Shown here piece after piece: positions 36,080-55,701 of a DNA stretch of 64,000 bases; position 1 is the first letter of the stretch, and each line of letters opens with the position of its first letter. The DNA is from Mytilus edulis. Its lineage: Eukaryota. A program made the translations under genes and the position numbers. The stretch lies in assembly GCF_963676685.1 (NCBI RefSeq), contig NC_092355.1, positions 1,798,001 through 1,862,000 of the forward strand, in the 5' to 3' direction. The notes beneath the pieces were generated by a model. That model was not told the origin of the DNA, ran no database searches, and worked only from the letters and a program-made list of their open reading frames with translations.

Positions 36080-36688
36080 TCAAATGTGAGAAAAACGCTT
36101 GGTACTTTTTATATACTTTTGTACAGATAGAAAAACAATATCATTTTCTTCAGAACTCAAAGACTCATCACCAGAGAGCAATAACTCAATTGTAATATTG
36201 ACAGCAAAAACATTGATTTCATTTATCATTAAAAGCCTTTGTGATGAAAAATTGTTACAATATAATAAATAATGTTTAGCATCTTCATTGATGAAGCCAC
36301 ATAAACAATTGGCATCTTGTACTAAGTTTGCATTAAACAAATCAGATTGAAGAGTGCTACAATGGTTTCGCAACCTTGCATGTAATACAGATAGTAAGCG
36401 GTCTCCAGAGCAAAAATGCCTCGGAGGTTTTTTATTCTTATAGTATAACATGTGCAATTTGCTTTTAAATGATGAAAATGTAGGACTCTGTCTAATGATA
36501 ATATCTAAAGTGTTCCACAATGTTATGGATGCTGGGAAATAAGAATGTTGATAAACCGACAAACGATTCACTGGAATAGTGATATTGTGTCTGTTTCGTA
36601 AATTGTAATTACTAATATCAGACACAAATTCTGGAACCAAGTCATGTAAATAATCTGGAGCCTGATTGTTAATAATTTTATAAAACAT
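36080..36688 (-). pseudogene. C-terminal 202 aa of the CR1-type ORF2, cut off by the Polinton
   Basis: MFYKIINNQAPDYL..YNLR..SYFP..WN..HARLR..CLCG..EDAKHYLLYC; joins in frame to ..REVKKLAM of ORF 52807-55701. Confidence 0.9.
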
Positions 36689-36689
36689 G

Positions 36690-37652
36690 AGTAGTATGTA
36701 TATTACTATAGGGTTTTTGAATTTTATAGGGTTTTTACCATATTAGGTAATAACATGATGACATCACATTTTTTCACCTGTCGTACATGTTAACATACAA
36801 ACTATAGCGTTTTCCTTACCTGTTGATTCAAATACTTGAGCGTTTTACAAGATGATGTAATAACATGTTTTACTATCACGTTATACGTAGAAAACTCTCA
36901 AATGTTTGTCATTGTAGTACATGTTAGCATACGGAACCTTTACATGGTATATATGAAAGAGAGAGAAATTACAAAGTAAAAACAAATAATTATAAATTGA
37001 AATAAAATAAGTTAAATTTAAAAAAAAAATAATAATAAAAAAAAAAAAAAAAAAAAAAAAATAATCTAATGTATACACAAATCATTTACAATTTCTATGA
37101 AGATAGAGAAGGGTCTTTTTCCTTGGATTTTTCGTTATTTGGTTAAGAACATGAAGGAACTTTAAGAAATAGCATGTTTGTAACCATTTTCTAATTAGTA
37201 AAACAAATGATATAATCACCTGATCATGTCCAACATATTAAACCCTAAGGCGATACAACTAGAAATAAATGTTTATATCAAAATTAGTTTAGATATTAAA
37301 TGAAGGAAAAATAATCTAATAGTAATTATTAATATACTTTATATAGTTCGAGAAGACATTTTATATAAATAAATATCTGTCTTGTATCATTTAATTTTGC
37401 ACATTTAACTTGTTGTAGCTCGAGAAGAAAGTGTGTATAAATATATATACATATTTCACATTTATTTTGTTTTTATGAATTCAAAGTTTAGAACAGCATA
37501 AAAATAAATATTTCAGATGTCAATATATTTTGGTTGAATACTTGATAAATAAATGCTCTTAGTAAACAGTTTTTTCTTTTTCTTTAACTAACCTTAAATA
37601 CGTCTGTACAGTCCGAGATCCAAGAACGAAATGATTTTAAACAGGAAGTACA
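36690..37652 (+). repeat. Polinton left terminal inverted repeat
   Basis: Near-identical reverse complement of 51869-52828. Confidence 0.95.
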
Positions 37653-38147
37653 TGTACGTCATGTCCTGTACGTAAGTCACAACTTACGTTTCATTTGACC
37701 TCGACAACCCGGAATAGATGACATAAGTCATGTAATAGAAAATCAAGAGAGAAGCATACTTTGATGTCAAAGGATTACGTTTTGTCTGCACAGTGAACCC
37801 GGAAAGTCTGAATCTATGTACGTCATGTCCTGTACGTAAGTCACAAGCTACGTTTTATTTGACTTCGACAACCCGGAATAGATGACATAAGTCATGTAAT
37901 AGAAAATCAAGAGAGAAGCATACTTTGATGTCAAAGGATTACGTTTTGTCTGCACAATGAACCCGGAAAGTCTGAATCTATGTACGTCATGTCCTGTACG
38001 TAAGTCACAAGTTACGTTTTATTTGACCTCGACAACCCGGAATGGATGACATATTAAGTTATGCAATAGAAAATCAGGATAGAAGCATACTTTGATGTCA
38101 AATGCTTACGTTTTGTCGGCAAAGTGAACCCGGAAAGTCTGAATCTA
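37653..38147 (+). repeat. Three tandem ~164-bp units just inside the left TIR
   Basis: Units start at 37653, 37817 and 37981 (TGTACGTCATGTCCTGTACGTAAG...CCGGAAAGTCTGAATCTA). Confidence 0.95.
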
Positions 38148-38368
38148 TTGAGTAATACGGTAAAATTGATACCCGTAAAATCGATCATTAAGCAACTGTG
38201 CAGACAATTTTAGGGTATTATGGAAACATTACGAGTGAAAAAACAACCCATAGATACGGGGAAGCTTCCTCTACGACCAGACAACAATGTCACAAGACAT
38301 AAAACTATGTAATGAACCATGTATATATATCTCTCCGTTCCTACAAAATTATCATTCAACAATTTACC

Positions 38369-38941
38369 ATGAACGGAGACACTTCAAACCACGCTAGAAG
38401 ATGGAGGGTGTCCAAAACAGGCCCATTAGAAGAGGCAATACTTACCATAAAGTTAACAGAAAACAGACGATTGACAATGAAGACCTGGAATGGAGAAATT
38501 CGAGTCGACATACGAGAATGGGAATCCGACCACAAGGCCACCACAAGAGGGGTTAGTTTGTCAGCTATGCGTTGGAAAGTACTGCATGACTTTGCAGAGG
38601 ACATTGACCAGGCCATAGAAAAAATGTCCGGAAAGGAAGAAGTGGACGTCAAAATTCATTTAGGAGGGAACATATACCTTAGCGTAGACCACAGATTCAG
38701 CACTGTAGATATAAGAAAGTTTTGGAGACCTAAAGGAGAAACAGATGCACGACCAACCCGAAAAGGTATAGCGTTAACAACTGAGCAATGGCGTATTGTC
38801 CGAGAATCAATGGAGAAGGTGAATGAAAAAATCCCAGACATCGAAACCATGATACCGTGTTGGATGAGCGAAGACCATCAGAACCAGCTTGGAATGTTGA
38901 GATGTAGTGAATGCAATCCCGACGATTATATGAGCTATTGA
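38369..38941 (+). CDS. Tandem PC4 (Sub1/p15)-domain protein with a C-terminal Cys/His cluster
   Basis: Two PC4-like repeats (RVDIREW..RGVSLSAMRWKVL; TVDIRKFW..PTRKGIALTTEQW) and C-x5-H..CSEC. TATATATA (38322) and Inr-like TCATTC (38352) favour the ATG at 38369. Confidence 0.85.
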   Translation: MNGDTSNHARRWRVSKTGPLEEAILTIKLTENRRLTMKTWNGEIRVDIREWESDHKATTRGVSLSAMRWKVLHDFAEDIDQAIEKMSGKEEVDVKIHLGGNIYLSVDHRFSTVDIRKFWRPKGETDARPTRKGIALTTEQWRIVRESMEKVNEKIPDIETMIPCWMSEDHQNQLGMLRCSECNPDDYMSY

Positions 38942-39007
38942 AGAGATTCGTGGCTCTTTTTTTTATGTGTATCACAAAATAAAATATATAAAGACAATGT
39001 ATGACTT

Positions 39008-39448
39008 TTATTCTTTTATTGCACAAACAAACATAGATACAAACATGTCATTATAATTCAAATCGTCCATCTTGAATATATCGAGTATTCTTTTCATAGA
39101 ATGGTCATTTATCCTCAATACGGCATACACTATACAAAACTCTCAACACTTATTTGAGTTATAATTCTGAAGTCTTCTGGTGTTGTAAGCATATTGTGGT
39201 CCATTTGCAATCATAGTTTCAATAAACGGAGTCATCGGCTTGTTTCCTAGAGAATCGAAAAATTCAACTGGTCCTTGTAACGGAAAATACAACACTGTCC
39301 AATGCTTCCCCGGTTTATCACTTGGATCGGTATTAACAATAAAGAGACTTGGCTTTTTACCGATTTTTGTTGGTATTTCGTCTGCAGCACAGACAACACC
39401 AAAGTTGCAAAACAAGTTCAACAGTGTTCGTATTTGGTTGCTAAACAT
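39008..39448 (-). pseudogene. Adenain-like cysteine protease with one nonsense codon
   Basis: NTDPSDKPGKHW, FFDSLG, LQ..SNKC*EFC. TGA at 39143-39145 replaces the conserved Gly; the frame continues to DLNYND..TAA at 39008. Confidence 0.9.
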
Positions 39449-39449
39449 G

Positions 39450-40703
39450 TCAGATTGTAACGGCCCTTGACTGACTTATTTCAAGAAGCGATGAAAATCT
39501 AGCATACATGATTACTGTTATAGGTTCAGGTAACGGTGTTGCAAACTTCATTTCCACACGAGTTTGTCCCTTTTTCAAGATTGATGTGTCATCGCCGTCT
39601 TGAAAATCTATAACGTACATACAGTAGCCGTGCGTATAGTCGCCACGACTTATGTGTAATGCCGACGTAGTATTAGAGTACAAAGTTTGATACGCTTCTA
39701 CAAAGTTTCCAGCTGCGTAGTTAGGTACGAGGGGTCTTGATGGAAAATTCTGTCCATCAACCATGAAGTTCAAATAGTTGCAGTTGTAATGAAACATTTT
39801 AAACGGGTTTTTCTTGTAACTTCCATTGAACGACTCTGAGCTAACACATGATATGACTAAGGAATTGGGTACATTTCCAAGAAATAAATCTTCGGCACTG
39901 AACGAATAAATCCCGGCTGCTAGGCTATAGGTTTTAATGGTGGACTTCATGTAAGGATACAGTGCGGGGGATGCTTTCAATGCCTCGTTGTGCCCCAGCA
40001 TGATGCCAGAGTTCGGTTTAACTGTACACACCTTGAGATAGGCATCGACTATATGCACTTTGTAGTCAGGATTTGTTTCTGGAGACATGAGACGAAAAGC
40101 ATTCTTATGGGGCCACAGTTTGATCTGAATCGGCACTCCATTAAGGACGAGTCGTTTCTGTTGACACAAGTCCAAAAACAAGGGTCCTTCGTAATCGCAT
40201 ATTCGGCCTGATTGGGTTTCCTTGTATCTCATATATAATCCCGTATTAGGTCCGGATTCCGGATCTGGCTCATCAATGTCTGGTCCTCTGTCCTTATGAA
40301 AACCCCAGGCCGACATTTTACCATTCTGATCGTTTACGTTTGAATTTAAAATCATGTCAAAGTAAGCCTTATATGCATAATTAGTTCCAACATGGTTGAC
40401 GGCTTGGTGTTGGAGACTCATTTCCACTTGAGAAAATATACTGCTTAGAGGCACGTTTACAAGTCCTACCAAATTATCTGCAGTGACGGGAGATCCGTCG
40501 GAAGTTCTCAATTGCAGTTTGATGTGCAGTTTCAAGCGTTCTAAATCAAGATACGAGGTGGACGTGGCCGGTATGTTGAATTCAATGGGAGACTCCTCAA
40601 CGAGCTGATTGATGGGTCTGTATTCGATCCATTCCCGTCCCAGTAATCCAGTGTCCCGGGGTTGTCTATCGAACAAGGCAAGACTTTCACTCAATTTGTC
40701 CAT
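39450..40703 (-). CDS. Polinton major capsid protein (double jelly roll), 417 aa
   Basis: LALFD..WIEYRP..PIEFNIP..YLDL, SIFSQVE, YAYKAY, DLCQQKRLVLNGV, FNGSYKKNPF motifs and position in the element. Confidence 0.9.
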   Translation of the reverse strand: MDKLSESLALFDRQPRDTGLLGREWIEYRPINQLVEESPIEFNIPATSTSYLDLERLKLHIKLQLRTSDGSPVTADNLVGLVNVPLSSIFSQVEMSLQHQAVNHVGTNYAYKAYFDMILNSNVNDQNGKMSAWGFHKDRGPDIDEPDPESGPNTGLYMRYKETQSGRICDYEGPLFLDLCQQKRLVLNGVPIQIKLWPHKNAFRLMSPETNPDYKVHIVDAYLKVCTVKPNSGIMLGHNEALKASPALYPYMKSTIKTYSLAAGIYSFSAEDLFLGNVPNSLVISCVSSESFNGSYKKNPFKMFHYNCNYLNFMVDGQNFPSRPLVPNYAAGNFVEAYQTLYSNTTSALHISRGDYTHGYCMYVIDFQDGDDTSILKKGQTRVEMKFATPLPEPITVIMYARFSSLLEISQSRAVTI

Positions 40704-40754
40704 GGTATGTACAAGAAATATTTATAACAACACGTCTCCCTCTCTTATAGTAGT

Positions 40755-41030
40755 TCATCCATCGAAAACATCGCTAAATTTACGTTTGAGTGTTTTTCTT
40801 TTCAGATTTTTAATTTCTTCTTTGGCCATCTCGACAGCCTGTGCAGTTGGTGACACAATTTTCAGATCGGGTTCAGATGAACCCATTCCTTTCTGGTTGT
40901 CCTTGACGACGTATTGACCAGGGACATGGTTTCCAGACGTCATAGACAAAAAGTAATCCTTGTATTTATTGACGTTTGGTTCGAATGGCACCCAGGTCTT
41001 TGTGTCGTAATCGTAAACGTGTGTGGTCAT
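40755..41030 (-). CDS. Small Polinton protein with a basic tail (putative core protein)
   Basis: Tightly packed between mCP and MCP; QKGMG motif; VSPTAQAVEMAK helix; KRKTLKRK tail. Confidence 0.65.
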   Translation of the reverse strand: MTTHVYDYDTKTWVPFEPNVNKYKDYFLSMTSGNHVPGQYVVKDNQKGMGSSEPDLKIVSPTAQAVEMAKEEIKNLKRKTLKRKFSDVFDG

Positions 41031-41431
41031 ACTTGTTTCAAATGAAGAATGAAGGACACTGTTCCTAGTGCTTTAAATTCGGACAGGTGTTGGTCTCTTA
41101 TAGATATTTTGATGCAACTTAGATCCGATCGCGTAATTGCGAAATAGAAAGAATCCGTAAAGATCCAGTCTTTTTTATACACTGGAATTTCTCTCAGTAC
41201 AGCTAGTGTTTTATCTCCGACAAACGACTCCTCACAGAAATCAACACAAACAAAAACAGAGGTGACGTGCGGGGGAAACGCTATATCCAACGAACACTGT
41301 TTCAGACTGCATTTCCAATGTCCCTGTAAACGGATCGTCTGTGGTAGAGCAACCGTAAACTCTTGTGCATTGTTATGAGGAAAGTAATTCAGAGAGCAAT
41401 CACTCGATAGAAACAGGTAATGCTGGTTCAT
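41027..41431 (-). CDS. Minor capsid (penton) protein, compact 134 aa
   Basis: N-terminal YLFLSS..YFPHN..FTVALP..LQGHWKCSL and C-terminal IKISIRD..FILHLK, typical of Polinton mCP. Confidence 0.8.
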   Translation of the reverse strand: MNQHYLFLSSDCSLNYFPHNNAQEFTVALPQTIRLQGHWKCSLKQCSLDIAFPPHVTSVFVCVDFCEESFVGDKTLAVLREIPVYKKDWIFTDSFYFAITRSDLSCIKISIRDQHLSEFKALGTVSFILHLKQV

Positions 41432-41467
41432 TGCTGTTAATGGGGAAGTGTGTGGGTTTCGTTTTTC

Positions 41468-42570
41468 TTATACAAATTCCTTCACCTCACTCTCGAGAAT
41501 CCAAGAGTCGAATTTTTTAGGCCAATGCAACCACCTCACAAGCACTTCTTTCCTACCCCGGTATTTTCGTCGCTTGATAATTCGTTCCACTTTATATCGT
41601 GTGTTCTCATCCACCTTAACTCTTTGCAATTCTGGAAAATAATAGGTACCTTCTATCTCGTCGCCGAGCCAGTCTGTTAATCGGTATACCGGCGTATTGT
41701 CACGTCTGTAGCGGGACTGTATCTTAAATATTTCTCCAGTAAATCGTTGTTGGTATTCTCTCTCGAAGGTGCCCTCAAGTAAGTCAAACGGACCAGATCT
41801 CCGATTTTGAACATGTATTTTCTTTTTGCAACTCGTTTTTCCTTGTGGTACTTGGTGCGAATCAAATATTGTTGAAGTCTTACTTCGTCTTCGTTATCGT
41901 TGCCGACCTCCGAGGGTGACGTTCCTAGTGATCTATGGGTTGTATGGTTGTAGCTGTCAACGAGTGAATCTAAAACCAACCTGTATGATTTATTCTGGTT
42001 TTCTGAAATGTAGCGGTAAATTTTCATCTTCAGCGTTTTCTGTACCCTTTCTGCATAGGACGCCTTGACCTCGTTTTGAGTCAGGATGTGCTTGATGTTT
42101 TTGCCACGACAGAAGCGTTGGAAATTTCCGTTCGTGAACTCCGAACCCTTGTCTGTCCTCAAAACATTCGGAGTCCGACCGTTGCCGACAATTGATTCTA
42201 GAGCTCTTGTAACTTCGGAGCCGGTTTTCTGTTTCAGTAATCGACAATTCACAAATCTAGAAAAAATGTCAATGGTTACCAATCCATATCTGAAGCCCTG
42301 ATTGTCTTTTTGCAGGGAGGAGAGATCCATTAAATCGGCATCCCACTGACTGTCTATTCCGTCTACAACCACCCTATTTCTCCGGAATCGTCGACGTACT
42401 TGTCGGGTCAAGGTGTAAGCATCCTGTCCTTGTAACCATTGTCGTATGTGATACTTGCTGATGTCGTATTGTCCCTGACTTTTTGCAAAGTCGTACAGCT
42501 TTTCGACCCCCGAGAAAGACGCCGGACTTTTCGGATCGTAATAGATCGTTTTTAAATAGTCTTCCCACAT
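41468..42570 (-). pseudogene. Retroviral-like integrase with C-terminal chromodomain (one frameshift)
   Basis: YYDPKSPASFSG, WDADL, IDIFSR, TDKGSEF, AER. After a shift at ~41772 the frame reads FEREYQQRFTGEIF..YKVERIIKRR..VLVRWLHWPKKFDSWI to TAA at 41468. Confidence 0.92.
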
Positions 42571-42602
42571 GATTGATGTGTTGTGTATTTAACCCCCACT
42601 TC

Positions 42603-43130
42603 TTATAAATCACACAACAGCTCTAACTCCATTAACGTCGGATAAACATGATACTCTATATCTCTTTGGTCTTTCACCCCGGAGATCACCACCTTACCGG
42701 AATGAAAGCAAGTAAATCGCACGTGTCCCCTCGAAACGATAGCGCCAGGGAACAATTCCGGTTCATAATTTGCGGCAAAGGTATTCTTCAAGAGATTCAA
42801 ACGGAGGTGTCCGTTAAGACTGTGTGTCAACGACATGGTTAGTATCTTGACGTCGTGGAAGTTCACTGGCCATCCGTGTCTCTGAATCTGTCTTGCGTAT
42901 CGTCTCAATCTCAGCCTGGCTTCTTTTTCATCGAGGACAGCACCGTTGCAAACAATTTTCCCTCGCGCGTAAACCAAGCAGTTTCCTCCTATCTTTTTGT
43001 GTTTCCAGATAACCACATTGTGACGTTTCGCATCATACCTTACATTACACATGACCTTTTGCGTTAAGACAAGGAGGTCGATTGGACACCCGAGCTCCGC
43101 CGAACAGACGATGTTACTGACATGGATCAT
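42603..43130 (-). CDS. Divergent TATA-box-binding protein (TBP core, two repeats, 175 aa)
   Basis: SNIVCSAELGCPIDL, YDAKRH, GKIVCNGA, RRYARQIQRHG, NYEPELFPG and FHSGKVVISG align colinearly with the TBP core. First ATG is at 43130; the track start is a TTG. Confidence 0.93.
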   Translation of the reverse strand: MIHVSNIVCSAELGCPIDLLVLTQKVMCNVRYDAKRHNVVIWKHKKIGGNCLVYARGKIVCNGAVLDEKEARLRLRRYARQIQRHGWPVNFHDVKILTMSLTHSLNGHLRLNLLKNTFAANYEPELFPGAIVSRGHVRFTCFHSGKVVISGVKDQRDIEYHVYPTLMELELLCDL

Positions 43131-43165
43131 GGCTATCGTCTGGTTCAAACTTCTCAGTATTAGTG

Positions 43166-43177
43166 TTTATATAAGAG
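43166..43177. promoter_or_regulatory. Bidirectional TATA element between the TBP and ATPase genes
   Basis: TTTATATAAGAG reads TATATAAA toward TBP (ATG 43130) and TATATAAG/TATAAGAG toward the ATPase (ATG 43213), centred in an 82-bp gap. Confidence 0.75.
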
Positions 43178-43212
43178 CGACACACCGTACAGAGTACCTT
43201 TCTGTCTACATC

Positions 43213-43866
43213 ATGAAAACGCTTGTACCATTCGAAATGTGCAGTAGTATGATTATATCTGGAGCGACGGGAAGTGGGAAAAGTACCTGGATATACAATT
43301 TTTTGCAAAATATCGACGACATGTATACAGACCAAAGTCCGGAGAAGGTACTGTACTGCTATGGGATCTACCAAGACCTGTTTATAGACATGGAAAGAAA
43401 TTGTCCGAGATTATCGTTCCATCAAGGAATACCTACGCGAGAGGAGATAGAAGATTTCACCGCCAATGGCAAACATAATCTGATCGTGTTGGACGACCTC
43501 ATGCACGTGGTCGTGGACAATGCCGAAATGGAATTGCTTTTCACTCAGGGGTGTCATCACAGGAAGCTCTCTGTGATATTTGTCACCCAGCAACTATTTT
43601 ATCAGGGTAAGAAAGCACGGACCATTGCCCTCAATACATGGTACATGGTGCTACTAAAGAACTTACGGAACGTGGCCCAGGTTTCCACCCTGGGACGTCA
43701 ACTGTTTCCGGGGAAAGGTAACGCCTTAGCGAATGCTTATCAAGATTGTCTGAAAACGCCATATGGTTATTTAGTTGTAGATATGGCGCCGAATACAAAC
43801 GATCTATATCGACTCCGGACCAACGTTTTCCCGGGAGAGGACCCCCTCATTTATTCCGCATTATAA
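43213..43866 (+). CDS. A32/FtsK-like genome packaging ATPase
   Basis: Walker A GATGSGKS, Walker B LIVLDD, HHRKLSVIFVTQ, PYGYLVVD. Real start is probably the ATG at 43213. Confidence 0.93.
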   Translation: MKTLVPFEMCSSMIISGATGSGKSTWIYNFLQNIDDMYTDQSPEKVLYCYGIYQDLFIDMERNCPRLSFHQGIPTREEIEDFTANGKHNLIVLDDLMHVVVDNAEMELLFTQGCHHRKLSVIFVTQQLFYQGKKARTIALNTWYMVLLKNLRNVAQVSTLGRQLFPGKGNALANAYQDCLKTPYGYLVVDMAPNTNDLYRLRTNVFPGEDPLIYSAL

Positions 43867-43901
43867 GAGGAATCTTTGTGACTGTGTATGTTTTGGAAAG
43901 T

Positions 43902-44216
43902 ATGAGCGATACCATTACAAAAAACGGCAGTTTCCTGAAGTTCTTTTTAACGGCAAACACGCTTCAGAAAAAAGTCATGTTACAGAATGTATCGCTTCAA
44001 CAGACCAAAGCCCTGTCGGAAATAGCGGTCAATTTGCTAAACGATACAGTTGATTTGCCAGCCCAAACGAAAATGCAACTCAAAAGATATAAGAAGGTAT
44101 ATCGGTTAATAGGCAGCAGACGAACGAGCTTGAAAAACAAACAGAACGTTTTAAGGTCCTCCTATCGTGCCATCACATTAATGTTGCAAGGGTTCTGGTC
44201 TCATCTTGGATTATGA
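43902..44216 (+). CDS. Conserved small basic Polinton protein (PW/PM-type; name uncertain)
   Basis: ALSEIAVNLL..LKRYKKVYRLIG..SLKNKQ pattern; TATAAGAG 40 bp upstream of the ATG. Confidence 0.7.
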   Translation: MSDTITKNGSFLKFFLTANTLQKKVMLQNVSLQQTKALSEIAVNLLNDTVDLPAQTKMQLKRYKKVYRLIGSRRTSLKNKQNVLRSSYRAITLMLQGFWSHLGL

Positions 44217-44632
44217 GTTCCGTACAGAAGGACGTTTTGATACCGTACGACAGATACCAGCAGTTAATCAAAAGATCTACCAAATATCAAATTCAATCGG
44301 GCCAGGGACAACGTTTAGAGGAAAGGTCCATTGTAGACGCCATTCCGACTGATCAGACCCATCGCGCCCAGGAGATTTTACGACTCATTCGGGACAGTCC
44401 AGAACAACCCTTGAACTGGAATGAAAACGGAGAAATCATTTACAGGGGGACATTGAAACGGGGATCGAGCATCACGAAACTTTTAAGACATCTAGTGAGT
44501 GGATCTAAAACAACCAAACCTATTGGACAACGAGAATTCCTCAAGAGTCTGAAAGAAATGGGCGTCACTGTTAGTTTGATAACCCAATCGATCCCAAGAC
44601 CACCGGGAAAGCGAAAATGGATGACCTTATAA
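44213..44632 (+). CDS. Conserved Polinton protein (PZ-type; name uncertain)
   Basis: VLIPYDRY, WNENGEIIYRG..GSSITKLL, PIGQREFLKSL. Confidence 0.75.
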   Translation: MSSVQKDVLIPYDRYQQLIKRSTKYQIQSGQGQRLEERSIVDAIPTDQTHRAQEILRLIRDSPEQPLNWNENGEIIYRGTLKRGSSITKLLRHLVSGSKTTKPIGQREFLKSLKEMGVTVSLITQSIPRPPGKRKWMTL

Positions 44633-44667
44633 GAGTGGTGAGGGCCTGTATTCATCATTTCCACAGA

Positions 44668-45048
44668 ATGGAGGATTACGAGAGAGTGGAACGGGACTTC
44701 AAATTGCATTTCAATGTCATAAAAATTATTGGTGTTCTGTTAATGCTATACAGTACGGTGATAACGATTTTGTTGGGAATAAACGTGAAGCCTGGCGGTG
44801 TTTCAATGGACTGTACCTTACGTTTAAGAAATAGCAAAGGCTGTCAGCCCAGAGACCAGTTTCCACTGACAAACGGTGCATATGTGACTGTGTGTACAAG
44901 AAGAGGCGTGGACATAAGACATTATATAAACGACAAAGTTCCAGCAGAGGGTGTGCACCTGAATCAAAGACAGTGGGTTTATTTGAAACGTTCAATGGCT
45001 CACATCGATCGTGCCATATCGACGGGAAACAATACCTCAACCCTGTGA
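44668..45048 (+). CDS. Transmembrane-anchored PC4-like protein
   Basis: Hydrophobic IIGVLLMLYSTVITILLGINV followed by FPLTNGAYVTV..VDIRHY..GVHLNQRQWVYLK..IDRAI (PC4 pattern). Confidence 0.7.
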   Translation: MEDYERVERDFKLHFNVIKIIGVLLMLYSTVITILLGINVKPGGVSMDCTLRLRNSKGCQPRDQFPLTNGAYVTVCTRRGVDIRHYINDKVPAEGVHLNQRQWVYLKRSMAHIDRAISTGNNTSTL

Positions 45049-45214
45049 TTTTTTTTTTTTTTTTTTTTTTTTTTCTCATATGAAAAAAGGAGAGACGAGA
45101 TGTATTTATGTACCATACATGTTTAGTTTTTTTTAGCTGTACCATTATTAAAGAATAGAAAACGAGGTGTTCATTTTGTATTATCGCACAAATAAATAAA
45201 AACACAGAGTTTAT

Positions 45215-48200
45215 TCAAAATCCGTACGGAATCGTCGTCATGTCATCCTTGACGACTCTCTTCGTATATACCACTTGGTATTTCTTTGATTGTTCTCTGT
45301 TGTAGATAAGGGACATTGGCCGATTCCTGACGATCTTTGTCTTGTCCACGAGCTCGATCTTCCTCTTCTTTGTGGATGGTTCTTCGTCCTCGTTCGGAGA
45401 GAACAACAGGCCCTTGATGGCGTCGAAATTGACGAGTTTTGAATTCTCGTAATTCAACGAGAATCCACGGACCTTGCATACTTCCTGACCATCGGATCTT
45501 CTGTAGGCGTAATTTTTGGGGCCACCGCTAACGAATTCCTCGATGTAGTGTCCCTCCAATTCGTCGGTCAATTCTCCGAGGTAATCTCCCAGTGATAATG
45601 TCTGTGCATTCCGCCTTTCGATATAGATGACGGAATCTGTGTCGTGGTACAACACATTTTCTTTCAACTGGTCGAGAACATCGTACAACTTCAGACGGGC
45701 CCAGGATGTCGTGAAAGTGGCCAAGAAGATGTTCGTCTTCGTGTCTTCGTCAACGAAGTCGTTCACGTGAATCCACGATACCTGGACGATGTGGTCGTTG
45801 ACGATTTCAAAATTTAAAACTTGTTTCGTTGGATCGGTAAGCATCTGAAAAAATTCATCCATCTGGTTATCGTAAAAAAACATCACTTGTGTCAAGTTCA
45901 GTCTTTGGCCGAATTTGCCCCAGAACGAATTGAGACAAAGCTTGGCCACAGCACGCAGTCCTGGGTTTTTCTCTATGGCATCCCAGTCCAGACGAACCCC
46001 CTCTTTCTGGAAATAACTTTCGATGTACGTCTTCTTTTGATCCGTAGTCCTACACCAGGCGGGAAAGTCGGACGCTTCCTGTTTGTATTTTAGAAAAGTG
46101 TTGATATAGCGAGCAAACAGTCCTCCGTCATTGGTCTCGTGGTCGTACATTGTAGTTTCCGGCCAGTGATATACTTCATACATTTTCACCACGGTGTATC
46201 CCTTTTCCATTGCTTTCATGATTTCGGGAGTGGTCCAGGTTCCAAGCAAACACCTCTGTTCGTCTGTGTGTTGACAAGGTGATTTAGACTCCTGGTCGGC
46301 ACATGTTTTACACAGCGGGAATTTCAATTTGCCCTGGTTTTTATACGGCAGAACTGGAAAAAACAGTTTTCTTGGAGGCAACATTTTTACCAGAGCGATA
46401 CCGAAGTAATCCTTCATCTCACTGAAATCGCTGTGAATAATATCTGGATGACCCACGGGGTACCGACACGTCTTGTTCGTCCAAGGGTATAGGCTCGTGA
46501 AATCGACGTATCGTATGAACTCCCCATCGGTTACCTCGTGATGCAGCCGGATTGCATTGGTTCTTCCACCATAGAAGCTATCTCGAGCATCCAAAGGTGG
46601 CTGTAAATCGAGGGAATTGACGAACCGTCTCATTTGTTCGTTTTCTTTCAGTTTCGATTGGAAATCGTGCTCCCAGATCGACACGTATTTGTAACCGGCA
46701 TTTTCGATGGTCTGCTTTCTGATTTTGGTCAGGTAATACAATTCTATCATCGTCTGCCTCGTCCCTGGAAGTCTGGTCTTGTCCCGTTCGTTCGGCATAC
46801 AGACTGGACACCCGTGCCACCTGCAGCCTAAAAACTCGTATACAGTATTGGTCTCTCTGCAATACCCATCGAAACGAATCCGTCGGCTGGGAAGACTGAC
46901 TTCACCACCATTCAAAGCGTGTTGGATCTTTTCCAGCTTTCCCTGTTTCTTGTTCTTTTCCATCACCCATTCCAACCATTCAATGCTCTCTTTACTGTAG
47001 TTGTCCAATCTTCGGTATCCTGCAGCCGGAATCAGAGCAATGGGCGATTTCACGAACTCGCGTTCGTGTTCTCGTATGCTCATCTCTTGGAGATCTGCAT
47101 GCGAGTACCATCTGTCTTCGTATCGAACGTCTATGTCGGACAGGTAGGTGTGCCATCCCAGGGATTTCTTTACTCTGACGTCCTCGTCGCCTTGGTGTTT
47201 TCTACATTCAACCACAAGATTGTGTGTGTGCAAGAGATCTTTTGGACTCAACCATCTATCGACGTACCATACTTCTCCATGTCCGTTGACCCATCGTGTC
47301 GGCAATGCGAGATCTGTGTTGGTTACTTAATGAACTCGGTGTTCCTCTTGAAGAAAACAGGTTCTAAATATGGTCATACACATACTGGCAATCGTCACAG
47401 AGTCGAAGGCATCCACGTCATTGTTTGTCTGTGTAAAGATCAACTCACGGAACTTTAAACAGGCCTTCCTCGGGATGGTTACGTCGTCACGACAGTAAGC
47501 CTCGATCTCTTTTGCAAAGTCAAATATGGCACCCTTTGATTTCTTTTCCTTGTACCATTTCAAGAAGTCGTGTCTATTTTCAACGTTCATGCTGTTCATG
47601 CCGTAGTCCTGCGGAGCTGGATATTCACCAATGTAGTTTTGATTTTCAATCGTGTTGAAAAATGAGGGAAGTAACCTTTCCTGATTTCCTCGTCTTCTGC
47701 TGTCAGGGAGAACGTTTTCGGCAGTTTTTTCAACGACATTGGTAAAAAATTCAGAGAGTCGACCAGTCTGATATGTAGCCCCTTGCCGACGTACATGCTC
47801 ATTATCTTGGAGCCGTTGTATATAATGTGTGTCGGTGTCATGCAGTTGTCCACCAGATACCTCAGGATGAAGGTGCCGTCGTATCCTTGTAGGTTGTGGG
47901 CAACGACTTTAGCTCCGAAATGTTTTTCTTGAAATAGCCAACGTCCGAAATGAACCGCTGACTCATATCCCTTGAAAACCATTTCTCGGTTGCCACAGGT
48001 GTCGGCACAAGGTGACCTGATGTACGACCCTTCTTTCTTCTTTTCACATTTCGTGCACCTGGTGCCACAGTTTTTGCACCGGACCTCGATCGGCTTCTCC
48101 TGACAGGCACTACAGCTAGTATGGGCGACTACAAAGTTGGGTTTGTGCTGGTTTCGTCCACACCAGTCCGTACTGCAATGTTGGCAGACTCTGCTTCCTT

Positions 48201-51092
48201 CTTTCGGCATGTAATTTTCCCTGCACTGCACTGGTGACGACTGGTCACATTCGAAGTCAAAAAAGATGAAAAATTTGTCTTTTATTTCCTTCTTTAGACT
48301 CCTCATGTAACACCTGTGGTTTCCGAAGACGACCTCAGTACAATTTTTACAGGTCCACTCGCCGCACTCGTGGGGATTTTCCAGCAAGTTTCTGTTTCTC
48401 CGGTCGACTGTTTTATGGCACTTGATGCAACGCCAATACTTGGAACATTCAGATAGACTGTCTCTGGCGTTCAGCGTTTGACGTTTCCCCTTCTCCTCTG
48501 GTGTCAACTTGTGGTACTGGAAACACTCCATAGAACGACATTCCATACGGCAGGACCTGCAAGATACAGGATCATCCATCACCACACATTCGTCACTTCG
48601 CTTACAAATTAAGCAGGGTCCACCACATGCATGCTTTGCGACGTTACTGTACGGTTTCAGACATTTCATACAAAAGTAGTTGTTTGAAAAGAAACCGGTT
48701 ATCGTATTGATGGCGTGGAAATGGTTGCCGTCCACCAGATAAAGAAAGATACATGGTCTGTCCGACTGTGCTCCTATTCGACAGAATCTGTTGCCTAACG
48801 CTGAATCGATGACGAGTATTCGAAGGTGTAAAACGTCTTCGAATACTGAGATGTCTGTGATGGTACAGGGTCGGTCCAGTGGCAAACCTACTTTACTTGT
48901 TAGGGCAGCTGCCAACTCCCTCTGTTCTCTGCTATTCTTTTTTCGTAGATTTTCGTAGTGGGTTGACGGCATCTTCCCCGTGTCTAATATCAGTTGCAAA
49001 TTAGACCTTCCTTTCCTTTCTTTCGTTATTTTCCGCCATTCTCCTCGAGGACAGACATTCTGCTTGGCCCAACAGACAGCGATGGCCCTGGCAAGACATA
49101 AATTGTCATCGTTTACAATTTCCACGATGGCTTTTTTTCTGGACAGCGAATTGTTATCTCCTCTCAGCTGTGTAAAATGTAATCTTTTACCCCCTTTAGG
49201 GATATCGATGACACCCACGTCTATTCTGAAGTCCACGTTTAAGGCCAGTTCTTGGTGACTGTTTAGAACTTTCATCACGTACTCCAGGACACAGGAGGGT
49301 GTCAGCTCACCAATAGGTCTTAATGAAACGACTATGGGTTCCACGTCTGGATGTTGGATGACCACTCTACCCAGGTCTTTCGTATCCATTCCTCGGGTCG
49401 CCTCACGAATGACGTCTTCAAACATTTTCATGAGGTTAGCATGAATATCTAACAGACGCTGGCCCCTCCATTTCTCATTAAATGTAACCCCGTATACATT
49501 TTCCATCGCCTTGTTTTTAAATGTCTTCGACGATTTTAGGTGTATTTCATAAGCGTCTTCGTCCCCGCACCCTTCTTGTTGAGACGTGTCGTGGCTAAGC
49601 GGGGAGCTCGATGGCACTGCTTCGTCCCCGCACCCTTCTTGTTGAGACGTGTCGTGGCTAAAATGGGAGGTCGATGGCACTGCTTCGTCAGGAGTACCTC
49701 TTTCTTTTGCATGTTCTTCTTTGTGCTTCACTAGATCTTCGTTCTTTTTGAATCGTGCGAAACAAACACTGCATTGGACTGTTTTCCCGCCTGTCTTCGG
49801 TTTACCTATACCACAAAATAAAATAAATCTGTTGTAAGTTATCGTTTATCAATTACTGTTCATTCAGAAAATATTTATTAATCAATTTTAGACTTAAATA
49901 CGATTTTTATCTTAACATTTTTCAGAAACATCCTGTTTGATGCACATTAAATTTTTCAAAATTATACGGGTTTCAAATATTGCTTCTACCACTCTTTCCC
50001 ATTTAAAAAAAATATAGTCTTTGAAGGCCGTACGGTGACCTATAGAAACAATTACAATTAGACTGTAATCAACTTACCACTTTTATTATCCATTTTTTCT
50101 TCAATACTTTGGGCACATTGGTATAGCAAAGTGTTTTCTCCCTCATCTGGAAAAAAGAACTTAGAATTAAAATACATGTAATCTTACTCCCAACAATGAT
50201 GCATTACGTTTTAATACATGTATTCGTATTCTATAAGATATGTCTCTATGTATAATACGTATTTGCTAAAATTTATTATTTTCAGAAAAATCCTGTTTGA
50301 TGCACATTAAATATTTTAAAATACGGGTTTCAATTATTGCCACTACCACTCTTTCCCCATTAAAAAAATATAGTCTTTGAAGAAAAGAAAAACATTGTGT
50401 ATGTTACCTTCAGTAAACAAACAATTACAATTAGACTGTAATCAACTTACCACTTTCATTATCCATTTTTTCTTCAACACTTTGGGCACATTGGTATAAC
50501 AGAGTGTTTTCTTCCTCATCTGAAAAAAAAGAATTTAGAATTAAAGTAAATGTAATCTTACTCCCAACAATGATACATTACGTTTTAATACATGTATTCG
50601 TATTCAATAAGATATGTCTCTATGTACATGTATAATACGTATTTGCTAAAATTTATATAATTGTAGGAGCATACTTCATTTGCATAATTTAAGATGATAG
50701 GGATAACAAAGAAAAGAAACTCACCAAATAAGATTTCCATTTCTGCGTCTTTCATCCTTGAACAATAATCACAGTGTATCTTTAAGTGTTCCTTACATCT
50801 AAAAGCAAACACATTTAAAGTTATTAAAGACATACACTCTAAATTAAGATTATAAACGCAATGGTTCTAAAAATAAATAAATGTTTGTACTTTAACATTT
50901 ATAATATATATACTAGACTTGCATGATTTTTTTTAATTATTTTTCACACAAATTATTTTGTTACTAGACATTACTTTATTTTAAAAAAAATGTGCAAAAA
51001 TTGAAAAACATTTAAAAAAATACTTACATATTGCTTTCTATGTACTCGGCATCGGCAAACAATTGATCGTTATCTTCAGGGGAAAAATCCAT
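45215..51092 (-). pseudogene. polB: Protein-primed family B DNA polymerase polyprotein, spliced (exons 51092-51028, 50798-50725, 50519-50451, 50146-50078, 49805-45215); one frameshift and one stop
   Basis: C2H2 finger; vOTU-like DNLCLARA..NHFHAI; exonuclease FFDFE / AHNLQGYD / YCRDDV; VSR-like DGY..YEFLGCRWHGC; polymerase DFTSLYP, KLCLNSFWGKFGQ, YHDTDS. Frameshift at ~47660 and TAA at 47327-47329. Confidence 0.92.
49915..50657. repeat. ~365-bp tandem duplication containing one 69-nt PolB exon per unit
   Basis: TTCAGAAA.ATCCTGTTTGATGCACATTAAA at 49921 and 50281; exons at 50078-50146 and 50451-50519. Confidence 0.9.
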
Positions 51093-51868
51093 TGGTTTTT
51101 TTTCTTGTTCGTGAATAAATTGAACGTTATCGGTTGATTCGAATTCTGTTGTAGAATTTTGAGAGTTTTGAATATAATTCTAACTTATATAGGTGATATT
51201 ACAGAAGAAAGGTGACATTATGATTAATGATTTCTTTGCTATAGAAGCATAATTACAACACAAAGAGAGATCAAATACATGCCGATAGGAACAGTATACG
51301 GTCAAATAAAGTACAATTTGTGACAAACGTCCAGAAAATGACTTACATGTTCTTCCTGTTTAAGATCATTTCATATTTGTATTCGGATTGTACGACAGAA
51401 TATATTGTTAGTCTTTTATTTACAGAAATGATATTAACAAACGTGTGTTTAGTCTAATATTATTTTTTTTCCATGTTCAAATCTTGAATTTTCTTACGGG
51501 TTCATACAATTTGAAAAAAAAATGTTAAAAGAAACATATATTTTATATAAACCTTCTTTTTGAAGGTATACACATTTATTTTGTGTATTTATTTTGACAT
51601 TTAGTGCTATGTAAATATATTTATATTCTTTTTTCATTTTATATCCAAATTAATTTTGAGAAATACTTTTTCTTGACTTGTACATGTATAGCCTAAAGGT
51701 TAAAATTGTTACACTTTATCCTGGGATTATATTCTTTGGTTCTCTAATTAGCTAATTGGTAATGTAACAACCATGTCATTACATCTTCTTACAGTACTTT
51801 CGTGTATTTGACCAAAAATCCAGACCCACAAACCTCCTTTTCTATCTATAAAGAACATATTAATCATC

Positions 51869-52828
51869 TGTACTTCCTGTTTAAAATCATTTCGTTCTTG
51901 GATCTCGGACTGTGCAGACGTATTTAAGGTTAGTTAAAGAAAAAAAAATGTTTACTAAGAGCATTTATTTATCAAGTATTCAACCAAAATATTTTGACAT
52001 CTGAAATATTTATTTTTATGCTGTTCTAAACTTTGAATTCATAAAATCAAAAAAAATGTGAAATATGTATATATATTTATATACACTTTCTTCTCGAGCT
52101 ACAACAAGTTAAATGTGCAAAATTAAATGATACAAGACAGATATTTATTTATATAAAATGTCTTCTCGAACTATATAAAGTATATTAATAATAACTATTA
52201 GATTATTTTTCCTTCATTTAATATCTAAACTAATTTTGATATAAACATTTTTTTCTAGTTGTATCGCCTTAGGGTTTAATATGTTAGACATGATCAGGTG
52301 ATTATATCATTTGTTTTACTAATTAGAAAATTGTTACAAACATGCTATTTCTTAAAGTTCCTTCATGTTCTTAACCAAATAACGAAAAATCCAAGGAAAA
52401 AGACCCTTCTCTATCTTCATAGAAATTGTAAATGATTTGTGTATACATTAGATTATTTTTTTTTTTTTTTTTTTTTTTTTTATTATTATTTTTTTTTTAA
52501 ATTTAACTTATTTTATTTCAATTTATAATTATTTGTTTTTACTTTGTAATTTCTCTCTCTTTCATATATACCATGTAAAGGTTCCGTATGCTAACATGTA
52601 CTACAATGACAAACATTTGAGAGTTTTCTACGTATAACGTGATAGTAAAACATGTTATTACATCATCTTGTAAAACGCTCAAGTATTTGAATCAACAGGT
52701 AAGGAAAACGCTATAGTTTGTATGTTAACATGTACGACAGGTGAAAAAATGTGATGTCATCATGTTATTACCTAATATGGTAAAAACCCTATAAAATTCA
52801 AAAACCCTATAGTAATATACATACTACT
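51869..52828 (-). repeat. Polinton right terminal inverted repeat
   Basis: Reverse complement of 36690-37652; ends in ACTACT. Confidence 0.95.
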
Positions 52829-55701
52829 AACATGGCTAACTTTTTTACCTCCCGCCTTACGCTTAATTTTTCCCATCCCGTCTCCCTGTAAATAGCGTTT
52901 CGTCTAGCATAACTTGGTAATCCAGTAACTACGCGAGCAGCCTCGATTTGAATATTTTCTATCCGATCAGAATTTGTGTTCCCACAATTATCCCAAACTT
53001 CTGATGAATACTCAAGTATCGGACGAATAAAAACCATATAAATTTTTTCCAAATAATCCCTTTTTAATCGATATTTTAGTTTGCGTAAAACATTAAGCTG
53101 CTTCGTAGTTTTCTCAATCAGTTTATCAACATGCTTATTCCATTTACAATCATTACTAAATATGACACCTAGGTGTTTGTGCGCACTAACTGGTTTCAAT
53201 GTAGCACCTCCAAAATCAAAAGTAATATCACTGTATATATTTTTCAAACTAAATACCATAATATCAGTTTTATTAGGGTTAAACTTCACTAGCCATTTTT
53301 CTGACCACTTACTTAAATAATCAAGATCTCTACTGATTGAATTTTTCAAAGTGGATTCATCAGGTGCAGTATGACCTATTGAAGTATCATCTGCAAAAAG
53401 CCTTCCGAATCCAGACATACCACCAGCTATATCATTTATGTATATTAAAAACAACAAGGGTCCTAATACTGACCCCTGAGGCACACCAGCGTTAAGTTTT
53501 CCAATGTTTGATAACGAATCTTTTATGACAACTCTCTGAGATTGTCTAGACAAGTAACTTGTCAACCAACATAGCAAGTCTCCTTTAATACCATATTTTT
53601 CAAGTTTATGTAATAAAGCCTTAATCCAAACAGTATCAAATGCTTTGCTTATATCAGCAAATGTAATGCTTGTTAAAAGCTTTTCATTTAGTGCACTCGA
53701 AATTTTGTTATACAATTCTATTAACTGATGCGAAGTTGAGTATCCTGGAATAAATCCGGATTGATACTTGTATAATAATTTATTTCCATGTAAATGGTTA
53801 AAAATATTTTTGAAAACAATCTTTTCTAAGACTTTACTCACACATGACAATAAGGAGACTGGCCTGTAGTTAGACGGTAATGACTTGTCACCACTTTTGA
53901 ATAAGGGAATAACATGTGCAATCTTCCATTGGTCTGGAAATATTTTGTCATTTAAAGATTTGTTAAAAAGTAGACATAATGGTTTGGAAATTTCATTTTT
54001 AACGGCAAGTAACATTCTGTTGCTAACGATATCTGGCCCAACAGCTTTATTAACATCGAGCGTTGAAAGAATATCAAGTACATCTTGTTCACTAACTACA
54101 ATTTGTGAAATAAATTCAAGACATCGGTCGTCAAATTCCGGCAAATCTTTACTTGCGCCATCTAAATTAGAAATTGAACAAAAATATTTATTTAAAATGT
54201 CGGACTTTTCGGTTCCCTCATACGCAAGTTTAAAGTTGTGATCAAGGTCCGTCATGGGTGGTAAATCATGAGACGGTGTATCACTTTTAATTAACATGTT
54301 AACCGTTTTCCAGTATTGTTTACAGTTGGTAACTTTTAGTTCATCTAAATTTTCATTAATACTGGTAAAAAAATATTTTTTAGCTTGCTTTTTCAAGTTA
54401 TTTACTTTGTTTCTTTGTTGTTTAAATTTCTTTTCTGCGGATGCACTATTTGAGCGAATAAAAATATTACGAAGCCTGTCGCGTTTTCTCAATTCACGCC
54501 GCAAATTTGAATCATACCAAACTTTATCGTCACATCTTATAGTTACTTCCCTTGTAGGTATGCACTCGGAGGCTATATTAAGAAATGAGTTCGTGAAATT
54601 AGTCGCAGCAACATGAACATCACTTGCATCAGAAATTAAAAATTCCCAATTTGTTTCAACTACTTTTTGTTTCATAAGGTCATAATCACCTTTTTTGTAA
54701 TCCCATATCGATCTATTATAAGTTCGTCTTTTACTAAAACAACAATTAATTGTGACGTATGTTCCATCATGATCACTAATACCTCTATCAAAAGGTATTG
54801 TGTCTTTATCTAAAACCGGTATCGAATCAGTGACTAAAATAGGATCAAGTAAAGACGTGCTACCTGTTCGTGTGTCAAAATGAGTAGCTTTGTCAATTAT
54901 GTTAACAAGGCCATTGATGAAAAAAATATCTCTTATATTTGACGGTAGATCTGACATAAAGTTTTTATTCAGGTCACCTAAGCAAATTATGTTATTATTT
55001 TCATCCATGGCATTTTTCAACATTTGATCAAAATACTGCCAGAAATAAACTGAAGATTGCCGTTCCGACCTATAATTGATGTTTATCAATATTGATCGCA
55101 ATTTAGTTTTTAACTCAAACCACATACTCTCAAGTTGGCAATTCTCCAAATCATGTCGACGAGTTATGCGAACGTAACTTTTATAATACATAATAATGCC
55201 ACCCCCATGAGAATTTCTTTCTTTTCGAACTGGTATTTCAAAACCGGATATATATAAATCAGAATCTGTAATATTTGAGTCTAAATGGGTTTCTGTCAAG
55301 AATACGACATCGTAATCTTCAATAATATCGACAATATAATTCAGTTTATTTCTAAGGCTTCTTATATTACCATGGAAAATTGACAATGTTTTCTCAGATA
55401 TTTCTGGTGTGCGCTCAGGACCCGGGTTCGGTTCGATGTCACCACATATTAGCAACAACCATAATAACAGTATGTACAATGAAATCATATAAGCAGAAGA
55501 TCTGTATAAATTAAAAATACATAGTTTGAGTCTTGAAATATGCGTAAATAAAACGGCAAGTAATTCATACACTGAGAAAGATACAAATGTTTTTCTCAAA
55601 CAACCCAGACTTATCTTGTGATAAAACAGTCCTATTGTCATTCTATATGCTACGATGTCATTACCCATTGTCAAATACAAGACAATACATGTAAATGACA
55701 A
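52829..55701 (-). pseudogene. CR1-type ORF2 (2A-like peptide, APE and RT), N-terminal 957 aa
   Basis: CGDIEPNPGP, NIRSL, LTETHL, GDLN, SDH, GPD, NYRPVSLL, DISKAFD, GVPQGSVLGP, FADD. Confidence 0.93.

Follow-up and report, generated by a model that had tools for sequence, protein, structure and literature searches.

A Maverick/Polinton-borne protein and its family join a predicted membrane anchor to a PC4 fold

Introduction

To our knowledge, and in the lists of structural matches obtained here, PC4-fold proteins are soluble nucleic-acid binders. A 126-aa open reading frame (ORF) of Mytilus edulis raises the question of what such a fold would do behind a membrane helix. It lies in the window, the 64,000-nucleotide stretch analysed here (NC_092355.1, forward-strand positions 1,798,001 to 1,862,000). 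A sequence-only reading had described a PC4 fold following a hydrophobic helix of about 21 residues, with three cysteines, a C-terminal NNTS sequon and a TATAAGA promoter, and had likened the product to a type II membrane protein that either tethers genomes to a membrane or is a PC4 fold repurposed for egress or entry. Are the helix and the fold real, on which side of the membrane would the domain lie, and which of these roles does the evidence favor?

Results

The host element and its TATAAGA motif

The ORF is carried by a 16.1-kb element with TIRs of ~960 bp (36690-37652 and 51869-52828) and a 6-bp TSD, AACATG. Pfam matches within the element are pPolB, a retroviral-type integrase, an A32-like ATPase, TBP and a tandem PC4, and its cysteine protease is matched in the PDB at E 4e-5. 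TIRs, 6-bp TSD, pPolB, integrase, packaging ATPase and protease are the hallmarks of a Maverick/Polinton. The 417-aa ORF at 39450-40703 had no match in Pfam, PDB or PHROG; from its size, position and the look of its sequence we presume it to be the major capsid gene, whose product in Polintons is a double jelly-roll protein.

36690..52828, unstranded: Maverick/Polinton host element, 16.1 kb, recognized by TIRs, TSD and gene content
38312..38941, + strand: soluble tandem two-domain PC4 protein (Pfam PF02229, E 3e-20, two stretches; no hydrophobic window)
44628..44634, + strand: TATAAGA, a TATA-like motif and putative promoter, 40 nt before the ATG of 44668-45048

The soluble tandem PC4 retains a basic residue at the position of human R100 and served as our control. 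Its C-terminal ~30 aa form a Cys/His-rich tail, conserved in most of its 19 homologs, that could bind zinc; one homolog, P0087, also carries PF00619.

The 11.2-kb coding core holds nine copies of TATAAGA where 1.1-1.6 would be expected, and 0/400 sequences of the full-length Markov nulls from which significance was taken reached nine. Six of the nine sit 37-46 nt ahead of a gene start: besides the membrane PC4, the genes concerned are those for the ATPase, integrase and presumed capsid protein and the ORFs at 41431 and 43902. No copy stands within 60 nt ahead of pPolB or the soluble PC4. The motif thus stands where the sequence-only reading had placed a promoter, and we infer from its distribution that the membrane PC4 is co-expressed with the other TATAAGA genes. 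The element also encodes its own TBP (42603-43130, - strand; Pfam E 5e-26), whose gene is preceded at 43 nt by TATATAA, which stands back to back with the motif of the ATPase. With this TBP, the tandem PC4 and TATAAGA before six genes, the element may run its own late-transcription system.

Several further features of the element were recorded. Two parts of one ORF, at 36080-36688 and 52807-55668 (both - strand), flank the Polinton with the AACATG duplication; from its translation we take this ORF to be a LINE endonuclease/reverse transcriptase, into which the Polinton appears to have inserted. On the minus strand (45215-49506, 41468-42570 and 39143-39448), pPolB is split over three ORFs and the integrase and protease seem shortened, reflecting either decay or assembly error/indels; the membrane PC4 ORF is intact. 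Subterminal repeats comprise three ~164-bp units within 37652-38148 on the left, and a 63-bp pair and ~370-bp duplicated units (49557-49682, 49919-50656) on the right. Between the ATPase and membrane PC4 genes lie two plus-strand ORFs (43902-44216 and 44213-44632) that had no match in the searched libraries; in position and size they resemble, as we presume, the Cupiennin/GasderminX pair of Beta adintoviruses.

The reading frame and its hydrophobic helix

The protein divides into the following parts.

44668..45048, + strand: membrane-anchored PC4-fold protein (predicted), intact ORF of 126 aa with no internal stop
44668..44724, + strand: N-terminal tail, residues 1-19, predicted cytosolic from the family charge bias, with basic residues adjoining the helix
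44725..44781, + strand: hydrophobic helix, residues 20-38, predicted uncleaved signal-anchor (hydropathy, model, family rows)
44782..44841, + strand: variable stalk, residues 39-58, with the non-conserved Cys49 (pLDDT low at 46-54)
44842..45027, + strand: PC4-fold domain, residues 59-120, with near-invariant Cys59 and Cys76 (profile, model, alignment)
45028..45039, + strand: overlapping C-terminal sequons N121 and N122, read from the ORF and not conserved in the family

The best 19-residue Kyte-Doolittle window scores 2.50, a value reached in 22 of 10,000 shuffles of the protein, and since it spans residues 20-38 a helix of ~19-21 residues, as originally described, is right. Among the 13 element ORFs scanned, this is the only one with a window above 1.6 and hence with a membrane helix, and no fusogen-like ORF was seen. 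The helix is kept with either of two starts. An in-frame ATG at 44617, upstream of TATAAGA and within the preceding ORF, was rejected as the likely start, and 44668 is supported because its TATAAGA spacing matches that of other element genes. A 139-aa antisense ORF (44726-45145) was rejected because it crosses a poly-A tract. Directly after the stop codon is a run of 27 T (45049-45075), where the membrane PC4 gene and pPolB run towards each other.

A conserved family of helix-bearing homologs

A HMMER search of a representative library gave 73 matches to the protein at E≤0.001. The alignment built from them has 72 rows, 71 homologs and the query, and leaves out P0001 (99% identical) and P0057 (a 1641-aa repeat protein). 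A hydrophobic window of at least 1.6 precedes the first conserved Cys in 64 of the 72 rows, which is not an unbiased helix frequency because a full-length query favors helix-bearing matches. Ten further matches, kept out of the family counts, were inspected, and eight had the helix. A word-indexed homolog search gave one match among four candidates, and a single-protein search of prokaryotic genomes, which finds close relatives only, yielded 52 pattern matches and no confirmed one. We conclude that the predicted combination of helix and PC4 domain is a property of a conserved family and not a single oddity, its homologs being known here as protein sequences alone.

Median domain identity in the family is 35%. 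One row is not independent: P0061 has the look of a copy altered by deamination or bisulfite conversion, since C-to-T changes alone explain 24 of its 26 differences from P0003 over 97 aligned residues. It was included in the helix, sequon, tree and residue counts and dropped only from the 71-row set used for start, pre-helix and identity figures. A subgroup of ~26 members was also seen, many with a second sequon adjoining the W89 position and some with an extended conserved C-terminal helix; both are absent in the subgroup of the 126-aa protein.

The PC4 fold and a probable dimer

On its own, the 126-aa sequence had no match in Pfam and PHROGs and matched human PC4 at E 0.1-0.2 only, and all three PDB sequences among the matches listed were PC4. 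The family profile matched human PC4 in the PDB at E 5e-9, and 36 of 72 members matched PF02229 at E≤0.01. The AlphaFold2 model (mean pLDDT 87, pTM 0.52) opens with a long N-terminal helix, passes through a stalk of low confidence and continues with strands E61-66, E71-76, E80-85 and E95-98 and then a C-terminal helix, which is the curved antiparallel sheet followed by one helix of the PC4/Sub1 superfamily. VIA-align placed human PC4 as its best match (Z 7.6, rmsd 1.4 Å over 58 residues, 33% identity), a Z below 8, the level under which the tool warns of a 'common arrangement', though the sequence agrees. The ten best Foldseek rows were all PC4 or MoSub1, none below E 0.001, and structure neighbors in the ESM Atlas were PC4 clusters with TM below 0.5. 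The Atlas gave no usable feature match for the 126-aa protein or P0014, and a viral structure library gave no match at E≤0.001. Profile and model both yield the PC4 fold that had been proposed from the sequence, and on this prediction we conclude that the protein is a member of that fold class.

The domain probably also keeps the PC4 homodimer, as modeled. The homodimer scored 0.55 against 0.02 for the best control, with an interface confined to residues 62-120, but the model may have reproduced this arrangement from the solved PC4 dimer. Runs agreed in at least 67% of contacts at pLDDT of at least 67, and the mark used was reached by 21/30 solved pairs and 0/23 single chains (17/29 and 0/30 in eukaryotes).

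Loss of most ssDNA-contact residues

In human PC4, according to the part of PMC4350104 drawn on here, ssDNA is contacted by R70, R75, R86, R100 and K101 and by the stacking residues F77 and W89. The 126-aa protein keeps only R86, and has Ala, Cys, Arg, Ile, Ala and Glu at R70, R75, F77, W89, R100 and K101, respectively. Across the family, the R70 and R75 positions are basic in 0/72, the latter being always Cys, and W89 is represented by W/Y in 3/70. The R100 position is basic in 2/68 family members versus 36/38 soluble domains, and R100 and K101 positions are both basic in 0/72 versus 31/38. R100 is the cleanest contrast, because the soluble control is itself variable at R70 (11/36), R75 (2/36) and W89 (16/38). 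Retained in the family are R86 (61/71), in part K101 (28/69) and, with a mapping made uncertain by a nearby alignment gap, an aromatic residue at F77 (19/69). These replacements make it likely that normal ssDNA binding has been lost. With most contact residues replaced and a membrane segment present, the 126-aa protein would not be expected to function as a PC4 coactivator.

Topology, sequons and cysteines

By the positive-inside rule, the basic flank of a membrane helix faces the cytosol. In 53 of 62 proteins the stretch before the helix had a higher net charge than the stretch after it, and with the count anchored on the conserved Gly this held in 52 of 61, with two opposed; the charge bias and the rule together place the N-terminal tail in the cytosol. 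This tail has at least 20 residues in 55/64 members (median 34 aa), a length that, in the predicted sequences, favors an uncleaved signal-anchor over a signal peptide.

Sequons point the same way. After the helix the family has 126, against 60.7 ± 7.1 in shuffled sequences, with 0/2000 shuffles reaching 126, although the shuffles ignore kinship and the family members are related. At least one post-helix sequon is present in 61 of 64 proteins (39.8 expected), and the stalk (13-40 aa) has 80 against 33.8 shuffled. Neither the N-tail (13 vs 18.3) nor a set of 20 soluble tandem PC4 proteins (20 vs 24.6) showed an excess. At the two main sequon sites Ser/Thr accompanies Asn in 41/49 and 22/47 rows versus 7/22 and 1/24 rows without Asn; Ser/Thr enrichment also extends to position +4 after Asn (24%, as against 29% at +2), so that part of the signal is positional conservation. 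Cys59 is found in 71/71 and Cys76 in 72/72 members, versus 0/28 and 4/36 of the soluble domains.

The query is a poor representative of this pattern. It lacks both of the commonest family sequon sites, the most frequent of which lies in the stalk. The three cysteines (49, 59 and 76) and the NNTS sequons (N121, N122) that had been noted are all present, but NNTS is weak: shuffling the protein's C-terminal part yields a sequon 63% of the time and only 8/72 members have a sequon in the C-terminal tail, and we therefore rejected it as strong evidence. Lying 5-6 residues from the C-terminus, these sequons are of uncertain use; a site that sits 14 residues before the C-terminus was used less efficiently, as stated in the part of PMC3613688 consulted. 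Thus the family shows the type II pattern, in which sequons and paired Cys are confined to the C-terminal part, and in the 126-aa copy alone this pattern is weak. Hydropathy, charge and sequon statistics across the family make type II topology, which the first reading had suspected, very probable, with the PC4 domain in the lumen, and the predicted ectodomain would be glycosylated and carry a Cys59/Cys76 disulfide.

Comparison with known proteins and origin

The human PC4/SUB1 C-terminal domain (PF02229; 1pcf, 6ycs, 4usg) shares with the 126-aa protein its fold and the predicted helix-on-sheet homodimer and with the family its profile; the D-I-R and G-x-x-L core motifs are also common to both. 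Unlike human PC4, the family has an N-terminal membrane helix, a stalk, a conserved Cys pair and a sequon excess, has lost the equivalents of R70, R75, W89 and R100, and has a shorter loop before the last strand. The element's soluble tandem PC4, considered with its 19 homologs, is likewise a PC4 fold on a Polinton/adintovirus, but these proteins differ: they have two domains, keep the basic motif and show neither a hydrophobic window nor an excess of sequons. A tree separated the 72 membrane-type domains from the 38 soluble domains (support 98/76). It gives no origin, because it has few columns and an unsettled bootstrap and holds membrane-type and soluble element-type domains without cellular PC4.

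MOSUB, a PC4 gene of Branchiostoma lancelet adintovirus, is named on a map in the supplement of PMC8502044, in the portion of that source used here; by its matching length, MOSUB (A0A5H3CIS2, 203 aa) is probably the tandem soluble type. Among adintovirus genes, PLA2X, GasderminX and Cupiennin are virion-module accessory genes with proposed membrane action, and in the portion of PMC8502044 covered (section 3.2) they have other folds and none is described as a single-pass glycoprotein or PC4-like. MFUS-1 of nematode Mavericks is, as predicted for our protein, a single-pass membrane protein encoded by a Maverick, and is taken as a hint of enveloped particles in the available text of bioRxiv 10.1101/2022.07.12.499685. 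There it is an 866-aa class III, glycoprotein-B-like fusogen with a signal peptide and a C-terminal helix, captured from outside, whereas the 126-aa protein, predicted to be type II, lacks fusogen features.

We found no description of a membrane-anchored PC4 in the literature searched, which lies mostly outside subscription journals and Repbase annotations. One paper with both polinton and PC4 was found, in which PC4 is a table label. The main text of PMC8502044 has no 'PC4', 'transmembrane' or 'glycoprotein', and the rest of its supplement may bear on novelty.

Discussion

What the protein may do

The reading that we favor, with somewhat more confidence than doubt, is a Polinton-borne type II membrane glycoprotein with a PC4 fold that does not bind ssDNA and is most likely a particle-related, envelope-side protein. 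In this model the helix would serve as an uncleaved signal-anchor and the short N-tail would stay in the cytosol, while the stalk and PC4 domain would enter the ER lumen and later come to lie on the outside of a membrane. Cys59 and Cys76 would form a disulfide and the stalk would be N-glycosylated. The domain would be kept as a compact homodimer scaffold without ssDNA binding, its former DNA groove presented to a protein or glycan partner. Expressed alongside the capsid-phase genes through the TATAAGA promoter that they share, it would be a small membrane or envelope-side protein acting in particle envelopment, egress or attachment. Topology, glycosylation, disulfide, dimer and late expression in cells are all predictions of this model.

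The claim that the PC4 fold has been repurposed is supported by the loss of most ssDNA contacts, R100 in particular, and by the predicted lumenal topology, and the element's separate soluble PC4 means that the nuclear PC4 job is already covered. The particle-phase role itself (envelopment, egress or attachment) is a tentative lead that we would hold a little less readily than we would doubt it: the shared promoter suggests production with particle genes, but the integrase also carries that promoter, and the element showed no fusogen-like ORF. Egress or entry, as first suggested, is compatible with the evidence, which demonstrates neither.

The main rival, although unlikely, is that the same lumenal type II glycoprotein is a host-facing accessory acting in immune modulation, superinfection exclusion or ER retention of a host protein. 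All of the topology evidence would fit this equally, the element has no fusogen-like gene, and the domain evolves quickly (median 35% identity), which is common in proteins that interact with a host. Against it, TATAAGA stands before this gene as it does before the ATPase and presumed capsid genes, and is missing within 60 nt ahead of pPolB and the soluble PC4.

It is more doubtful still that the lumenal or extracellular domain uses its groove to bind a polyanion, such as extracellular nucleic acid, a glycosaminoglycan or an acidic peptide, for attachment or scavenging. The R86 position is basic in most members, query position 63 is basic in about half and the sheet region is slightly basic, but its mean net charge of +0.8 is a third of that of the soluble control (+2.3). 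The stacking W89 is lost, a sequon adjoins its position in 22 members, and the Asp84-Arg86 pair may be structural. An acidic peptide that mimics DNA is also a ligand of PC4, according to the part of PMC2755895 drawn on, which would fit such binding.

Reverse topology, with the PC4 domain cytosolic or nucleoplasmic and tethering single-stranded genome intermediates to a membrane, is highly improbable. The fold and probably the dimer are kept, as is R86, the 126-aa copy has weak sequons only, and N-tail sequons occur in 13/62 members. The charge bias points the other way, however, the sequon excess is confined to the post-helix part, the cysteines are paired and R100 is lost in 66/68. Genome tethering, one of the two roles first proposed, is not supported, because type II topology puts the domain in the lumen and most DNA contacts are gone.

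Finally, that translation starts at the internal Met47 (MDCTL), making the helix an incidental upstream extension, is scarcely credible and already largely refuted: the helix call is absent in 8/72 rows and the sole 99%-identical database protein begins at Met26, within the helix, but Met occupies the MDCTL column in only 3/71 rows, seven of the eight helix-less rows look like short or partial/shifted gene calls and one is borderline (KD 1.57), and pre-helix residues are conserved (Lys 57/71, Gly 47/71, His 42/71). Neither outcome that the first reading had named as refuting it was thus obtained: a PC4 fold is predicted, and the homologs retain the helix instead of beginning at the MDCTL Met.

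What it would mean for Polintons

Returning to the particle-related, envelope-side protein that we favor, a broader possibility, which we regard as speculative, is that it belongs to a widespread and undescribed family of Polinton envelope or surface glycoproteins that arose from a duplicate of the element's own nuclear ssDNA-binding PC4 gene and acquired a signal-anchor, a disulfide and glycans. The available part of bioRxiv 10.1101/2023.08.22.554363 poses as an open question whether only nematode Polintons are enveloped, and a small glycoprotein under a capsid-phase promoter offers a concrete marker for it. If true, the existence of such a family would imply that a group of Polintons in animals other than nematodes makes particles wrapped in membrane, and its members would show the PC4 fold at work outside the cytoplasm. 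A PC4 fold moved into the secretory pathway would be a clear instance of exaptation, for which the element itself supplies a control in its soluble counterpart.
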